A DNA stretch of 52,060 nt, taken from positions 1 to 52,060 of the IMG/VR virus record IMGVR_UViG_3300004199_000001; one strand, 5' to 3'. The notes beneath the pieces are model-generated. The model did no database searches. It saw only the letters and a list, made by a program, of their open reading frames with translations, and was not told the origin of the DNA. Below, piece by piece: positions 282 to 10,491 of the stretch (positions are counted from its first letter, which is position 1; each line of letters begins with the position of its first letter). The stretch comes from a virus. Its lineage: Duplodnaviria; Caudoviricetes. A program made the translations under genes and the position numbers.

Positions 282-1139
282 TCAAATTTCGTGGCCGTAC
301 CATCGGACACGACCAGCGATTTTTATTTCTTTGGCCTGATCAGGGCTGATTGTTTGCTCTTTATATCTCTCGTTGTCGCTAATGATGGTCAATGATCCGT
401 CCAGGGACTGCTGGATGCGTTTGACGATCAGGTGATGATCCGATTGGACTATATATATGGCATCGTCTTTAATAGATTCGATGCTGGTGTCTACTAAAAG
501 TATGTCACCGTGAAAAATAGTCGGCTCCATGCTGTCCCCCCTCGCCTTGATCAGTACGCATTTGCTGATTTGCAGGCCTCTTTGACTCAACCAATCCTTT
601 CTAAACGCCATTTCACTTTTTTGCAGCTCTTGATCGACAAGACTGCCATTCCCCGCCGAAGCTTCCACATCATAAAACGGCACTAGGGCGAAATCGCCCA
701 GGTTAGCCGCACTCATCCCCATCCTATCGTTACAAGCCTGTTGTGAATGCCCTAGGTAGGCAGGTTTTCTCTCTTCAACATCAAATATATCCAGTCCAGA
801 CCGTTGCGGACGCTGTACCTTGTCTCTATTCAGCACCCCGCCACTTTCTTCCTTAAGCCGATTGATCATCTCCAGAGTTTCCTGCCGCGTCATGGTCTTT
901 TCTTCCGTATCCTGCCGACTAAACCCGCCGTGCAGCAGCATGTCCCCTTCGCCCGTCAGCACCCAGTTGATGTTGACTCCAGCCTCCACCATTCCCGTTA
1001 AAGCACCAGATCCCGGTTCGCTAGGGCCTTTTTCATAATTCTTCCAAGATGGTAACGGAATATGAAATTTGGCCGCTGCCTCAGGTTGAGTCAAATCTAA
1101 TTCCATCCTTAATAGATGAAGTCTTTCATTTATTTTCAT
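282..1139 (-). CDS. Prophage repressor, XRE HTH plus S24 (LexA/CI-type) peptidase
   Basis: N-terminal HTH (LTQPEAAAKFHIPLPSWKNYEKG), Ala-Gly cleavage site EASAGNG, catalytic GDSMEP and VKR. Divergent from ner; likely start is ATG 1139. Confidence 0.9.
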   Translation of the reverse strand: MKINERLHLLRMELDLTQPEAAAKFHIPLPSWKNYEKGPSEPGSGALTGMVEAGVNINWVLTGEGDMLLHGGFSRQDTEEKTMTRQETLEMINRLKEESGGVLNRDKVQRPQRSGLDIFDVEERKPAYLGHSQQACNDRMGMSAANLGDFALVPFYDVEASAGNGSLVDQELQKSEMAFRKDWLSQRGLQISKCVLIKARGDSMEPTIFHGDILLVDTSIESIKDDAIYIVQSDHHLIVKRIQQSLDGSLTIISDNERYKEQTISPDQAKEIKIAGRVRWYGHEI

Positions 1140-1269
1140 TGCGCACCGATTGCGCACCGGTGCGCAACTCCTGAAAAATACGATGCGAAACATTGCGCAC
1201 CATTAACTATATGATATTTATAATAATTATTTGCTTTCATAGTAATATCTAATTTCATTCGGTGCGAAA
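1139..1269. repeat. Cluster of TTGCGCACC/GGTGCG(C/A)AA repeats; candidate transposition enhancer or operator
   Basis: Copies at ~1139, 1151, 1160 (inverted), 1193 and 1261 (inverted), around an AT-rich IHF-like stretch. Confidence 0.5.
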
Positions 1270-1321
1270 TGAAATTTAATACTTATCATGTCTTGACAAG
1301 TATCAAATTTCATCCTAATCT
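1269..1321 (+). promoter_or_regulatory. Early promoter (TTGACA-17-TAATCT) overlapped by a 45-bp imperfect palindromic operator
   Basis: -35 at 1293..1298, -10 at 1316..1321; inverted repeat ATGAAATTTAATACTT / AAGTATCAAATTTCAT spans 1269..1313. Confidence 0.65.
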
Positions 1322-1357
1322 ATTCATTCGTTACTAACTAGACAGGATATACAAGAC

Positions 1358-1741
1358 ATGAACGACAAAGACCAAAAAAATGCCAGTGTTGCTGCGGAAG
1401 CACCCGCGCAAGACTGGCACCCTGCCGATATTAAAGCCGCTTTAAACAAAGCCGGTTATACCCTTGCCTCATTAGCCGAAGAGCACGGCTTAAAAGCCGG
1501 TGGCACATTGTCAAAGGCACTGACATCAAGCTTTCCTATTGCCGAGCAGCGTATCGCCGATGCCATTGGCGTACACCCGAAAGTGATCTGGCCAAGCCGC
1601 TATAACGAAGACGGCACCCGCAAGCCGCAAGGCTTTCGAGCGTTAGAGTCTACCCGAAGAACCGCCAACGCTCAAGCCAAGGCCGCCGAAGCCGCAAGAA
1701 CTGGCAGCGAAGACGGTAGCATCGAAGAAAAAAAGAGCTGA
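1358..1741 (+). CDS. ner: Ner/Nlp-family transcriptional regulator
   Basis: DWHPADIKAAL...AEQRIADAIGVHPKVIWPSRY Ner signature; lies between repressor and transposase. Confidence 0.92.
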   Translation: MNDKDQKNASVAAEAPAQDWHPADIKAALNKAGYTLASLAEEHGLKAGGTLSKALTSSFPIAEQRIADAIGVHPKVIWPSRYNEDGTRKPQGFRALESTRRTANAQAKAAEAARTGSEDGSIEEKKS

Positions 1742-1772
1742 AGCATAACCCAATAAGGGCTAGGAGCAGCGT

Positions 1773-4127
1773 ATGAACAATATAAAAAGGCCAACCACGC
1801 TTGAAGAAATAAGGATGGCGCTTGGGAAATCAAAGCGGACTGTCGAAGTATCCGCAAAGAAAGGCGGGTGGGAATACACCGAAGAAAACGGATCAGGGAA
1901 AAACAAAAAACGCTTATACGCCTTGAAAAATTTACCCAAAGACATCCAGCAAGCCATTTTTTCACACCGATTTAACTTAGGAGTTAATCATGGACAACAC
2001 CAAACCAGCGGAGAAAGTTCGCCAGCTTCAACTGCCAGCAATAGCCGAGGAAATGAGCCAGGGGCAGATCAACGAAATCATGGATCTGGAAACGAAATTA
2101 ACGATGTTCCAGGTCGAATTCATGATGGAAGCGGTAACAAAACCGGGATTAAGACTGCCACTATGGGGGCATCAAAAGCGGGAAGACTGGGCAAAAATAC
2201 AGGCAGCGCCACTTTATTATGCCCCGGCACTGCTGGAGGAGGAAGAACTGAGGCAGTTCCTGCAACTCAAGGTGCTGGAGCGAATGAAACTGATCAGACA
2301 CCAGCAACTGACCCTAAAAAACGAGTGCTGGCAGCTGACCGCAAGGGGGCGACTAGTAGTGATCTGGCACATGCGAGTGGCGGCGGACTATCAAGCACAG
2401 ATGAATCACGGATCGACGACCGACAGCGCCTAAAAGACGGCTCCCGGCAAGTCATTTTACAGTTTGTCGAAAGCTATCCCGGATCTGTCGAGGCGGCTTG
2501 CGAGTATTTAACACACGGCTATGCCGCAGGCAGCTTAGCGCCCGACCTGGCGTATGCGATTCAGCACTGCAATGACAAGCTGAACGCAAACAGGATCGGC
2601 AAGGTCTCTGCCAGCACCGTTGGCAAATGGCGGCAACTGAAGAACAAAACCGGCCACTGTTTACCGTCCAAGACCCGGATCAAGATCGACTGGCAAAGCG
2701 TGTGGTGGTTCCATCTGTTCTTGTCCTGCTACCGCAAGCCGCAAAAGCCGAAGCTGACCGAGGCCCATGCGGAGTTCAAAAAGAACTGGCTCGAACAGAG
2801 TCTGTCGCTGGACGAGTTTCCCAGCTATCACACGGTTAACCGACTGCTTTCGACAGTGCCCCCTATCATCAGGGAGACGGGCCGTTGTACGGGTTCGGAA
2901 ATGGCGGCGCTCAAGTCATTTGTGCGCAGGGACTGGTCTGGATCGAGCAACGAGGTATGGGTCGGCGATGGGCATACTTTTAAAGCCAAGGTACGCCACC
3001 CAGAGACAGGACGGGCGTTTGCGCCGGAGGTCACGGTGATTATCGACGCGGCTAGCCGCTTCATTGTGGGCTGGGCGTTCAGCCTGTCGGAAAACCAGAT
3101 CGCCGTATCAGAGGCGCTAGGCCAAGCCATGCTGAAACATGGCAAACCGTTAATTTATTACTCGGATAACGGTTCCGGCCAGACCGCAAAAACCATCGAC
3201 TGCCCAGCGGGCGGAATGTTGGCAAGGCTTGGGGTTCGGCACCAAACCGGCATACCCGGAAATCCGCAAGGGCGCGGCTTGATCGAGGGGCTTTGGGACA
3301 TTACCGCGATTGCGGTAGCCAAGACGTTCCCGACCTTTCAAGGCACGGGCATGGATGACGGCGCATTGCGCAAGGTTACAGCGGCGATTAACAGCGCCAA
3401 GCGCAAGGGAGAAGTGCCGACTTTTGTACCGTCATGGCAAGAATTTATGGCCGCCTGCGAGGAGCGTTTTGATACTTACAACAACGAGCATAAGCATAGC
3501 AGCTTGGGTGGGAAGACCCCCGCCGAGGTGTATTTCGCCAACTTTGACGAGAGTTGGTCCTGCCCGCTAACTGAGGACGAGACACTTAACCTGTACCGAC
3601 CTTTTGTAGAACGGATGCCAAGGCGAGGCGAAGTAACCTGGATCAATAACATCTACTTCAATCAAAAACTGGTTGAACTGCCCGAGAAGACCAAGGTGCT
3701 CGTGGCTTATGACATGCACCATGCTAATCACGTCTGGATCAGCGACCTACAAGGTCGGTTTATTTGCGTGGCGGTATGGGATGGCAACAAGGTCGATGGC
3801 TTTCAAAAATCGTTTGTTGAGAAGCTGAAAGACCAACGCATCGACGGCATTGAAAAGCTCGCGCTTGAAAAGGCCGAGGCGGCCCGCGCTGAACGCTACG
3901 GCATCATTGACGGTGAAGTGCTGGAACGCATCCCAGCCATACCGCAGGAAGTCATCGAGCCATTGGTACGAGTTCAACCGATACCAAGGGAAGCAGATGA
4001 ACCGTTAAAAAGCCCGGTTATAGAGGGTGGATTTAACAGGCAGGAACCAGAAGAAAAGACCATGACCCGGCAGGAAACCGCCGAAATGATCCAGAAGCTT
4101 CTGGAAGCAAAGAATAAGGGCGGCTAG
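1773..4127 (+). CDS. Mu-type DDE transposase (MuA-like)
   Basis: N-terminal Mu HTH, DDE motifs WVGDGH / YSDNGSG / GRGLIEGLW, Mu-transposase C domain; followed by an ATPase gene. Confidence 0.95.
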   Translation: MNNIKRPTTLEEIRMALGKSKRTVEVSAKKGGWEYTEENGSGKNKKRLYALKNLPKDIQQAIFSHRFNLGVNHGQHQTSGESSPASTASNSRGNEPGADQRNHGSGNEINDVPGRIHDGSGNKTGIKTATMGASKAGRLGKNTGSATLLCPGTAGGGRTEAVPATQGAGANETDQTPATDPKKRVLAADRKGATSSDLAHASGGGLSSTDESRIDDRQRLKDGSRQVILQFVESYPGSVEAACEYLTHGYAAGSLAPDLAYAIQHCNDKLNANRIGKVSASTVGKWRQLKNKTGHCLPSKTRIKIDWQSVWWFHLFLSCYRKPQKPKLTEAHAEFKKNWLEQSLSLDEFPSYHTVNRLLSTVPPIIRETGRCTGSEMAALKSFVRRDWSGSSNEVWVGDGHTFKAKVRHPETGRAFAPEVTVIIDAASRFIVGWAFSLSENQIAVSEALGQAMLKHGKPLIYYSDNGSGQTAKTIDCPAGGMLARLGVRHQTGIPGNPQGRGLIEGLWDITAIAVAKTFPTFQGTGMDDGALRKVTAAINSAKRKGEVPTFVPSWQEFMAACEERFDTYNNEHKHSSLGGKTPAEVYFANFDESWSCPLTEDETLNLYRPFVERMPRRGEVTWINNIYFNQKLVELPEKTKVLVAYDMHHANHVWISDLQGRFICVAVWDGNKVDGFQKSFVEKLKDQRIDGIEKLALEKAEAARAERYGIIDGEVLERIPAIPQEVIEPLVRVQPIPREADEPLKSPVIEGGFNRQEPEEKTMTRQETAEMIQKLLEAKNKGG
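1990..2433 (+). CDS. Overprinted (+1 frame) 147-aa protein inside the transposase, possibly winged-helix
   Basis: AGGAG RBS at 1979..1983; folded-protein composition with LERMKLI...WQLTARGR; overlaps the low-complexity linker of the transposase. Confidence 0.7.
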   Translation: MDNTKPAEKVRQLQLPAIAEEMSQGQINEIMDLETKLTMFQVEFMMEAVTKPGLRLPLWGHQKREDWAKIQAAPLYYAPALLEEEELRQFLQLKVLERMKLIRHQQLTLKNECWQLTARGRLVVIWHMRVAADYQAQMNHGSTTDSA

Positions 4128-4195: not shown

Positions 4196-4927
4196 ATGAA
4201 AGCACATTTTGTAAAAACCAGTAATTACAACCAGTTCATGACCATGCTGGCAGCGGTCGAGGGCCAGGCCCCCAAGGAGGGCCGCATCATCAACGTCAAC
4301 GGGGAGCCCGGCAGCGGCAAAAGCCGCGCGATGGATCATGTCGGCGCTGACCGCAACGCCATCTATATAGAGGGCATGCCCGGCATGACCGTAACCTATT
4401 TGCGCGAGCTGCTGGCTCATGAGCTGAATTGCAGCGGCGGAACCATGTTCAGGCAGCAACAGGCCATCAATAAAGCATTTTCCGATCGCAAACCGATGGT
4501 CATCTTGGACGAGGCTCAGCACGGCCTGAACAAAAAAGCCGAGTGCATCGAGTTCTTGCGCCGCACCTGCGAGCAGGTCGGCAGTGTGTTGGTACTGGTT
4601 TGCCATACCAGCGAGAAGCACCGATTCGGCGAGCATAAGCTGGCTCACATCTCAACTCGGATCAGCGCGGTGGTGGAGTTTACCCCGGCAACACTGGCCG
4701 ATTGCATCATGTATCTGGGCGAGTTGTGCGAGGTTGAGATCGATGCCGGAGTGGCACAGCTGGCGCTGACCCAATCCAGAGGCCGCTACAGATTGCTGTC
4801 CAACGCCTGCCGGACGCTGGAGGACTTCGCCACAGCGATGGGCAAGACCGCACTAACGGCGGATGACGTCAAGGGCATGATGCTTTGCGAAGATGCCATG
4901 AAGGCATTGCGTAAAGGCTCTAAATAA
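4196..4927 (+). CDS. MuB-like AAA+ transposition ATPase
   Basis: Walker A GEPGSGKS, Walker B VILDEAQ; directly after the transposase. Confidence 0.92.
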   Translation: MKAHFVKTSNYNQFMTMLAAVEGQAPKEGRIINVNGEPGSGKSRAMDHVGADRNAIYIEGMPGMTVTYLRELLAHELNCSGGTMFRQQQAINKAFSDRKPMVILDEAQHGLNKKAECIEFLRRTCEQVGSVLVLVCHTSEKHRFGEHKLAHISTRISAVVEFTPATLADCIMYLGELCEVEIDAGVAQLALTQSRGRYRLLSNACRTLEDFATAMGKTALTADDVKGMMLCEDAMKALRKGSK

Positions 4928-9808: not shown

Positions 9809-9967
9809 ATGCCAAAAAATATTGAAGACGCCTTGAATGAGGCAAACGAATTTCGATTAAAAATTGAATCCTCACAGCCGAACGATATTTATTCGGCAAT
9901 TCGCGAGCATGAACAAAAGCACAAGACCGCTTACGAACTGCTAAATAAGTGGGCTCGTGGTGTATAA
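9809..9967 (+). CDS. Cassette-borne 52-aa protein (MPKNIEDALN...; not in ORF track)
   Basis: Sits exactly between two attC cores; stop TAA lies in the core GTATAAT. Confidence 0.65.
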   Translation: MPKNIEDALNEANEFRLKIESSQPNDIYSAIREHEQKHKTAYELLNKWARGV

Positions 9968-10081
9968 TGCCACGGTAAGGCAACCGCCGACAGAGGAAGC
10001 CAAAAAGAATGAATAACTTTGAAAAACACCAACCGCGAACCGCGCTTAGGGCGGCGGTTCGCCTTGACCGACTCGTTATGC
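9962..10081 (-). repeat. Integron attC-like site 2 (120 bp)
   Basis: Minus strand: GCATAAC-5-GGTCAAGG C(G)AACCGCCG...CGGCGGTTG CCTTACC-5-ATTATAC; 8-bp L'' versus 7-bp L', two extrahelical bases. Confidence 0.82.
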
Positions 10082-10099
10082 TTATTACAGAGGCTTTAA

Positions 10100-10315
10100 A
10101 TGAAACAGCTATTTAATAACCCAGTCCTTGGGCAACGCGTAATTTTAAAAAATAGCCTTGGCGAGGAAAGCCAACAAAGAATTGTTGAAGTTACCACAAA
10201 GGCTATTCGAATTTCGTCATGCAATTTGTACAAATTTAATAGAGACGGCAGTCTGAATAAATCGGATAAGCGAGACAGGGTCATCGAACCGTCGATTAGA
10301 CCTGTTGGTGCATAA
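10100..10315 (+). CDS. Cassette-borne 71-aa protein
   Basis: GAGG RBS; flanked by GTTATGC (10075) and GCATAAC (10310). Confidence 0.7.
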   Translation: MKQLFNNPVLGQRVILKNSLGEESQQRIVEVTTKAIRISSCNLYKFNRDGSLNKSDKRDRVIEPSIRPVGA

Positions 10316-10347
10316 CGTAAATAGACACCAAAAACGATTCGCATACT

Positions 10348-10391
10348 CAACCAAACCCGGCTTAGTCCGGGTTTTTTTATGCCTACTCAAT
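10348..10391 (+). terminator. Early operon terminator
   Basis: AAACCCGG-CTTAGT-CCGGGTTTTTTT. Confidence 0.8.
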
Positions 10392-10491
10392 GGTTATCAC
10401 CTTAGACCAAGACAGCGGCAACATAAAAATAAATCGAGCGATAATGCAGTCTTACGGCTAAGATTACCCGTTTTTAACTTAGGAGAAGGCA

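Follow-up and report, generated by a model that had tools for sequence, protein, structure and literature searches.

A copy of the transposase tail in the linker of a CI-like repressor from a Mu-like phage: a possible mimic of a partner-binding peptide

Why would the repressor of a transposable phage carry, between its two domains, a peptide that otherwise forms the very end of the transposase? The question is raised by IMG/VR virus record IMGVR_UViG_3300004199_000001, analyzed here over its whole length of 52,060 bases (the window), the left end of which is laid out like that of a transposable Mu-like phage. A CI/LexA-like repressor gene, a Mu-like transposase gene, and the gene of a MuB-like ATPase (B) are located there. 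The initial annotation of the window had noted the likeness between the repressor linker and the transposase C-terminus. The observation was confirmed: the linker peptide is, as judged from its sequence, a genuine copy of the transposase tail, far beyond chance. The reading that we favor, tentatively and with somewhat less than even confidence, is that the copy is a selected mimic of a B-binding tail, the partner being assigned by analogy.

In the repressor linker, positions 855..929 (minus strand) translate to GGFSRQDTEEKTMTRQETLEMINRL, and in the C-terminal region of the transposase, positions 4026..4100 (plus strand) translate to GGFNRQEPEEKTMTRQETAEMIQKL. These 25-residue copies are identical at 19/25 residues and 57/75 nt, and six of the identical residues are encoded by different codons; all these counts, present in the initial annotation, were recomputed with the same result. 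Whole-protein BLASTP aligned repressor residues 69–98 with transposase residues 749–778 (20/30 identical, E 2e-9) as the sole significant high-scoring segment pair (HSP). In 20 shuffled repressors, the best 25-residue window reached 8–10 identities vs. the 19 observed. A 29-nt core, GAAGAAAAGACCATGACNCGGCAGGAAAC, was found in the window only at the two sites of Table 1 and was matched in 0/100 shuffles. The transposase copy is the true C-terminus of the protein, as had been annotated, with the stop codon at 4125–4127; the two loci lie 3.1 kb apart on opposite strands.

Repressor residues are numbered here according to the 286-residue translation of 282..1142, in which the likely start Met is residue 2, at 1139. 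Peptidase_S24 (PF00717) was identified by Pfam at residues 155–279 (E 1.6e-23), while the HTH_31 match at residues 7–52 was weak (E 0.0096, below the curated cut-off). Among the PHROG profiles, the transcriptional repressor family PHROG 4 was matched with E 6e-41, and PHROG 4 and 2328 cover the N-terminus. AlphaFold2 predicted five helices in residues 1–63 with predicted local distance difference test (pLDDT) values of 96–97, and pLDDT exceeded 90 in both domains: helix-turn-helix (HTH) at residues 1–63 and S24 at residues ~151–282. In 40 homologues, Ser204 (GDSME) of the Ser/Lys dyad was invariant and Lys241 (VKRI) nearly invariant. By these features the repressor is of the LexA/CI-like S24 type with a predicted interdomain Ala-Gly cleavage site. 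The comparison with the Mu c (Rep) type of repressor was negative: all BLASTP HSPs outside the linker between the repressor and the transposase had E of at least 0.24, and the repressor, on this comparison, is not a member of that type and has no N-terminal similarity to the transposase. The linker was disordered in the AlphaFold2 model (pLDDT <50 at residues 73–83 and 102–140), and the helix predicted within the insert is amphipathic, with hydrophobic Leu90, Met92, Ile93, and Leu96. The peptide sits between the HTH and S24 domains, N-terminal to Ala163-Gly164; Pfam, AlphaFold2, and the homologue alignment agree on this placement, which had been proposed in the initial annotation.

Comparison with other repressors delimits the insert. 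Of the 363 homologues, 120 were listed and examined. The nearest among those listed, P0004 (251 aa vs. 285 aa; 69% identity by BLASTP, 76% in the alignment), is without exactly 34 residues: it reads ...LLNG followed directly by DKAQHPQRSGLDVF..., vs. ...LLHG, the insert GFSRQ...VLNR, and then DKVQRPQRSGLDIF in the window. One other homologue among those listed, P0005 (66–67% identical, with a different HTH), has a diverged copy in the same place, GGLSQQEPETKTMSMQQTLEMLQEIQEAKNQG. It retains the ...EAKN-G (...EAKNQG) end of the tail; the window repressor reads KEESGGVL where the tail has EAKNKGG. Since P0005 keeps the tail end, the ancestral insert was probably the whole 32–33-residue transposase C-terminus. 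Across 40 homologues, both the length and the content of the linker are hypervariable, with a ~70-residue unrelated insert or none, and in this alignment the linker of the repressor family is evidently an insertion hot spot.

The different, helical insert of ~70 residues (…ADAGD..AAKDYF…ETVLQAIL..G.E.P..LF..FK.L…) lies at the corresponding place of the linker in many homologues (P0009–P0011, P0013, P0016, P0019, P0034, P0066, and P0073, as well as the L024 and L029 repressors). In the one case tested (L004), it had no match among the other open reading frames (ORFs) of its own locus. The repressor linker appears to be a site where modules dock. The C-terminal part of the protein varies as well: repressors of the loci L020, L022, L023, L027, and L028 have the same HTH type (42–59% identity over residues 2–70; 31% over 2–112 for L023), with S24 replaced by other helical C-terminal domains, which suggests that Mu-like phages, even closely related ones, exchange the induction module.

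The source of the insert, the transposase tail, is a conserved element. The transposase contains the Pfam domains rve (PF00665, E 2.6e-9) and then Mu-transpos_C (PF09299, E 6.2e-11), and matched PHROG 310 at residues 212–774 (E 3.7e-128); the match to the N-terminal Mu-type DNA-binding domain PF02316 was weak (E 0.0051, 17.6 bits vs. the cut-off of 23.3). With the B protein as bait, 70 IMG/VR loci were collected, and 36 distinct tails were aligned. The core [LM]-[ST]-x-x-[ED]-T-x-x-[MWL]-[LI] was conserved in these 36 Mu-like transposase tails and is therefore likely to be a functional motif. It is preceded by an acidic stretch, often D-F, and followed by a variable end, ...EVAAG in many tails and KNKGG in the window's subgroup. 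Close copies of the tail, GGF[NS].QE.E..[TM]M[TS]..[EQ]T..M[IL]....AKN[KQ]GG, end five other transposases (L016, P0124, P0125, P0127, and P0128). In the AlphaFold2 model of the last 130 transposase residues, a III-alpha-like helix (fragment residues 27–54) is followed by a stretch with no secondary structure (55–111) and a helix (112–127) over TRQETAEMIQKLLEAK; the element at the extreme C-terminus is thus tethered after the III-alpha helix, as in a III-beta-type tail. The predicted layout is that of a tethered hook, and both copies were modelled as isolated helices in disorder, as expected for a hook.

Other features of these transposases were also recorded. Residues ~75–215 (1990..2420), between the N-terminal DNA-binding region and the core, form a ~140-residue low-complexity region rich in Gly/Ser/Thr/Asn. 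Before the tail (3930..4025), an IP.E..EPL..V element is duplicated in tandem (IPAIPQEVIEPLVRV / QPIPREADEPLKSPV); the duplication was also listed for L016, and the element is single in relatives. The tails of L031–L055 and many of L056–L086 end in ...EVAAG, ...VAAR, or ...SAAA; we take the ...EVAAG-like ends to be reminiscent of ssrA-type C-terminal ClpX tags. A second large class of tails has the pattern DAAKYRWL...W..Y..T.EWEDLFG.

The tail profile was scanned over 159 repressors (the 120 listed homologues and 39 from loci), with 20 shuffled decoys for each. Only the window lineage (28 bits), P0005 (18.3 bits), and P0056 (9.9 bits) exceeded the decoy maximum of 6.7 bits; when the window's tail subgroup was left out of the profile, they scored 14.0, 8.6, and 10.7 bits, respectively, vs. 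a maximum of 7.2 bits in 3180 decoys. P0056 falls into another clade of repressors, one that has a different type of HTH, and the P0056 linker reads ...ENKTKLTAQETWLLLFGEE... just past the HTH. Its LTAQETWL is 8/8 identical to the tail core of phage L026 (...EETQQLTAQETWLKYF...), which is of a different tail subtype. The exact words shared in 5,724 real tail–repressor pairs were 13-mers and 10-mers (window lineage) and the P0056 8-mer, whereas in 114,480 decoy pairs the longest shared word was a single 7-mer and no 8-mer was found. The insert was absent from 7/7 aligned near homologues of P0056, including P0055, which over the compared stretch is near-identical to the repressor of the L026 phage. 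P0056 is without the ...EIDYGS tail end of L026, and when LTAQETWL was searched for as a degenerate DNA pattern, the L026 phage alone was retrieved. These data suggest that the tail core was captured twice, or that one old capture tracks the tails, the P0056 match being to the tail of another phage, L026; either way, this points to function. A resemblance by eye of the L028 linker (…IDTSMFLKVL…) to its own tail (…YQETQMFLQGG) was dropped, as neither BLAST nor the tail profile supported it.

Selection on the copied peptide was estimated by the Nei–Gojobori method as the ratio (omega) of nonsynonymous (dN) to synonymous (dS) divergence over 25 codons (25–30 across estimates), with ~16 synonymous sites. 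For the repressor copy vs. the window's own tail, dS was 1.24, dN 0.16, and omega 0.13; for the repressor copy vs. the L016 tail, 0.69, 0.15, and 0.21; and for the two tails vs. each other, 0.68, 0.16, and 0.23, respectively. Across estimates, dN/dS ranged from 0.13 to 0.24 with dS ~1. In a three-way star with distances split by hand, the repressor branch had dN ~0.075, dS ~0.63, and omega ~0.12. A neutral copy that old should have lost the motif, and the repressor copy would therefore have been kept by selection; with so small a sample, this is suggestive, not conclusive.

The arrangement is rare in the loci searched. Tails were compared in cis with every other ORF of the 65 loci that had a transposase end, and with the repressors of those 40 of the 80 repressor-centred loci that also held a transposase; the window lineage alone gave a convincing match. 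Among 7,381 six-frame ORF segments (70 loci and the window), the tail profile matched only transposase ends and the window repressor. The weak in-cis matches in L105, L109, and L137 (E 0.004–0.058, 7–13 residues) were treated as noise. In L087 (IMGVR_UViG_2508501051_000003), the tail of a more distant Mu-like transposase had a marginal match (14/26, E 1e-4) to a 162-aa ORF (9931..10416, plus strand) downstream of B; this ORF, which is not a repressor, may carry another tail-like peptide in a second protein or be noise, and was treated as noise. A metagenome scan with the peptide alignment A2 gave 176 candidate stretches, two of which were confirmed: the window's own phage (L015) and the transposase tail L016. 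The word-indexed search gave one match out of two candidates for the repressor linker, the window's own protein, and three matches out of 28 candidates for the tail. The profile search of 1.84 billion representatives gave three matches: P0127 and P0128 are transposase ends, and P0126, a repeat protein with 14 weak stretches, was judged spurious. None of the 50,697 isolated phage records matched the tail. Searches of IMG/VR for P0005 and P0056 were negative, and the repressor scan of genome contigs found two weak, unrelated loci only. Literature searches, which covered articles without their supplements, turned up no account of a repressor into which a transposase tail had been copied.

The ATPase gene, the candidate partner of the tail, starts 69 nt past the transposase stop (Table 1). 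With the ATPase profile (alignment A5), the best PDB match was MuB (8xvb, E 8.6e-9; query 29–217 vs. chain 93–286). The AAA+ core of the 243-aa protein is related to MuB, and its gene comes directly after that of the transposase. The N-terminal MuB domain (~65 residues) is missing, MuB having 312 aa and the match beginning at MuB residue 93; by its profile, the 243-aa ATPase is a shorter MuB homologue. Those of the listed repressor homologues that are named come from Methylobacter, Methylomonas, and related methanotrophs. No close isolated phage was found: the best repressor match had 29% identity over the full length, and the best transposase matches had 32–38%.

Table 1. Features at the left end of the window.
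Feature	Position	Strand	Details
CI/LexA-like repressor gene	282..1139	-	HTH, disordered linker, S24 autopeptidase; 285 aa from Met at 1139, plus stop
Ala163-Gly164, expected autocleavage site, VEASAGNGS	651..656	-	S162, A163, and G164 nearly invariant in 40 homologues
Linker insert GGFSRQDTEEKTMTRQETLEMINRLKEESGGVLNR, copy of transposase tail	825..929	-	34-residue indel vs. P0004; boundary ambiguous by one Gly
Predicted isolated helix RQETLEMINRLKEE, residues 86–99, within the insert	846..887	-	AlphaFold2, 10-residue blocks with pLDDT 69 and 85
29-nt core in the repressor gene	877..905	-	28/29 identical to the copy in the transposase gene
Ner-like early regulator	1358..1741	+	Pfam HTH_35, E 2.4e-25; PHROG 769
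Mu-like DDE transposase, 784 aa	1773..4127	+	Pfam rve and Mu-transpos_C; PHROG 310
Transposase C-terminal tail GGFNRQEPEEKTMTRQETAEMIQKLLEAKNKGG, then stop	4026..4124	+	Last 33 residues; source type of the repressor insert
29-nt core in the transposase gene	4050..4078	+	Shared with the repressor gene
MuB-like AAA+ ATPase, 243 aa, candidate tail partner	4196..4927	+	Pfam AAA_22, E 2.3e-10; PHROG 296, DNA transposition protein

The mechanism that we propose for the peptide begins with the predicted flexible tail of the transposase. In this tail, an acidic stretch leads into a short amphipathic helix, and the last residues (KNKGG) are basic; its position and architecture match those of the MuA domain III-beta tail and of the TnsB hook. 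The linker of the CI-like repressor, itself disordered, would have received an in-frame copy of 34 residues, which selection would then have maintained. The repressor helix may dock where the transposase tail does, the MuB-like ATPase being the likeliest partner, and the operator-bound dimeric repressor could then occupy or discharge B, whether leakily expressed, its own, or that of a superinfecting relative. With B uncoupled from the transposase, transposition would be restrained at the protein level as well as by transcriptional repression. Once the repressor has cleaved itself at Ala163-Gly164, the N-terminal fragment that carries the peptide would be monomeric, and the effect would be weakened at induction. 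A fuller version, in which at least two captures of the clade's transposase hook act on the MuB-like ATPase and give the lysogen an SOS-switchable immunity to self-insertion and to heteroimmune relatives, seems doubtful to us.

The choice of B as the partner draws on the Mu and Tn7-like systems, in which, as summarized in the sources cited, MuA domain III-beta binds MuB and ClpX (PMC3562280), the MuA C-terminus stimulates ATP hydrolysis by MuB and disassembly of its filaments, and a 15-residue TnsB hook decorates TnsC (PMC9371665). The assignment of MuA residues to MuB or to ClpX binding follows reviews. MuB is described as expressed at a low level in Mu lysogens, where it contributes with Rep to the organization of the prophage domain (PMC3820752); since MuB is present there, a contact between a repressor and B is not biologically absurd. 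Over 31 loci (465 pairs), tail identity correlated with B identity (r 0.70) and with transposase core identity (r 0.47), the partial correlations being 0.61 and 0.21, respectively; between L022 and the window, for instance, the core was 26%, the tail 58%, and B 71% identical. This indirect evidence slightly favors the B ATPase as the partner. Complex prediction for the B ATPase (A5) with the repressor linker (A6) gave a median of 0.54 vs. 0.44 for one unrelated-partner control and was not used as evidence.

Several points weigh against a selected mimic of the B-binding tail. The contact with B, and with it the consequence for transposition, is drawn by analogy, and the link of the tail to MuA III-beta appears to be one of architecture, not of demonstrable homology: the tail profile scored ~-0.6 bits on MuA's own tail, and the window tail ends in KNKGG, without the RRKKAI degron. 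The tail–B correlation uses non-independent pairs, and, as the codons of the tail adjoin B, linkage can give the same correlation, which is therefore not decisive. The initial annotation had looked to co-variation of linker and tail within each phage, and on a fine scale this was not seen: the window repressor copy is as close to the L016 tail (20/27) as to its own (19/25). Among 76 distinct contigs holding both genes (39 loci with a transposase end and a recognizable repressor, plus 40 repressor-centred loci, minus three sampled twice), one had a tail copy in its repressor, and three repressor lineages among the 159 sequences carry the peptide; an insert so rare must be dispensable for Mu-like phages of this type. 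The dN/dS values come from 25–30 codons with ~16 synonymous sites. In addition, the ten codons of EEKTMTRQET have zero synonymous differences between the transposase genes of the window and of L016 (640..668), the tails of which otherwise have dS ~0.68, while the repressor copy has two such differences in these codons; the identity of the core codons could come from gene conversion, codon preference, or constraint at the nucleotide level, and not from peptide selection alone. The selection on the peptide suggested in the initial annotation is backed by the low dN/dS and the six synonymous differences, but with a sample this short and with core codons invariant between transposases the evidence is suggestive, not conclusive.

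Another explanation would make the helix a recognition element of both proteins for ClpX or a similar host unfoldase or protease; the helix would serve transpososome remodelling in the transposase and, in the repressor, clearance of the N-terminal fragment after autocleavage or tuning of stability. We regard this explanation as rather doubtful, yet as a serious rival, which fits the data about as well as mimicry of the B-binding tail. The C-termini of the Mu transposase and repressor are themselves alike (...RRKKAI and ...EVKKAV; K-K-A-[VI]), and RRKKAI of MuA is reported as a ClpX degron (PMC8138137). Latent ClpX signals are described for the C-terminal motif of the Mu repressor and for LexA fragments, and in S. 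aureus phages ClpX is described as binding the N-terminal fragment of CI after cleavage (PMC10584840); a site in a disordered linker can also be used by ClpX, according to PMC3983244. In the window, the peptide would remain on the N-terminal fragment after cleavage at Ala163-Gly164. However, ClpX signals of the MuA and ssrA types are located at the extreme C-terminus, and the repressor copy is internal. The three repressors share the helix and not the tail end (KEESGGVL for EAKNKGG in the window; P0056 without ...EIDYGS), and the ...EVAAG of many tails looks like a separate C-terminal tag, which leaves the helix free for another role. Finally, the tail subtype follows B, while a host factor would predict uniformity across the host.

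The insert may also be a functionless passenger, the 3' end of the nearby transposase gene having been copied in inverted orientation into an insertion-tolerant linker. Consistent with this, the linkers of the 40 homologues are hypervariable and hold unrelated ~70-residue inserts, the nearest listed homologue, P0004, works without the insert, the insert is rare, and no more than 3.1 kb separates the two loci, which occupy opposite strands of a rearrangement-prone, transposing genome. Nevertheless, we consider a passenger unlikely: dS of ~1 with dN of 0.15–0.16 indicates a copy that is old and yet conserved at the protein level, the copy was retained in two repressors with different HTH domains, and a second tail subtype is present at the same linker position in a different repressor clade. 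Moreover, the tail profile matched only transposase ends and the window repressor in the 7381 ORF segments.

Self-association of the helix is improbable in our view. The repressor would then pair with the transposase tail and poison the transpososome like a truncated-transposase inhibitor, or the helices would give cooperativity between repressors. Binding of like with like would explain why the peptide has the same sequence subtype as the clade's transposases, and the helix is amphipathic (Leu90, Met92, Ile93, and Leu96), but its 14–16 residues are short for a stable coiled coil. A conserved DNA or RNA element, namely an inverted repeat with 28/29 identical nt and copies 3.1 kb apart flanking c-ner-A as a recombination or binding site, would suit the inverted orientation and the ten core codons without synonymous change in two transposase genes, but it is hardly credible, as beyond the 29 nt the likeness is carried by the protein (six of the 19 conserved residues have synonymous codon differences), the protein has diverged in the two other repressors with the peptide in a way that preserves the motif, and no further copies were found in the window.

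If the repressor copy acts as a mimic of the tail, it would be a natural peptide regulator of transposition after translation. In Mu and Tn7-like elements, a C-terminal helix couples the transposase to the AAA+ target selector and to ClpX, and a functional copy would mean that evolution alone has pinpointed the minimal motif by which a large, uncultured family of Mu-like transposases binds its partner. The 34-residue peptide would then be a simple reagent for testing this interface; a structure of the MuA–MuB complex is stated to be lacking as of 2022 (PMC9371665), and visualization of the complex is listed as future work in 2024 (PMC11292022). If the shared element is one for ClpX instead, the logic of Mu Rep and MuA would be extended to CI-type repressors.

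Among known systems, the MuA III-beta tail with MuB and ClpX and the TnsB hook with TnsC are both tethered C-terminal elements that contact an AAA+ ATPase, and a copy of the tail in another protein is not described in the relevant parts of these papers (PMC3562280, PMC9371665). The window tail is predicted to have a layout like that of MuA III-beta, with a III-alpha-like helix, ~55 unstructured residues, and a 16-residue helix, and it adjoins a MuB homologue; sequence similarity to the MuA tail is undetectable, and the contact with B is proposed by analogy. In the latent ClpX signals of LexA and CI, as here, autocleavage of an S24 repressor brings into play an element on its N-terminal fragment, as outlined in PMC10584840; those signals, however, are exposed new termini or the fragment itself, not copies of the tail of another phage protein. 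Mu Rep, the nearest known parallel, is described as having sequence homology to MuA and binding the Mu ends (PMC3820752, citing Harshey 1985 and Mizuuchi 1986). There, as in the window, the lysogeny repressor and the transposase of a transposable phage share a protein module, but in Mu this module consists of the N-terminal DNA-binding domain and a ClpX tag at the terminus, and Rep does not belong to the S24 autopeptidases. The window has a CI/LexA-like repressor, and what it shares with the transposase is the C-terminal helix of the latter, placed internally in the linker; sharing of a DNA-binding domain between repressor and transposase is what was known from Mu. The Tn5 inhibitor (Inh), likewise encoded by the transposon, has sequence in common with the transposase and acts after translation to reduce transposition. 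It is made from the transposase gene itself as an N-terminally truncated form, whereas in the window an unrelated transcription factor has received a motif of 34 residues.

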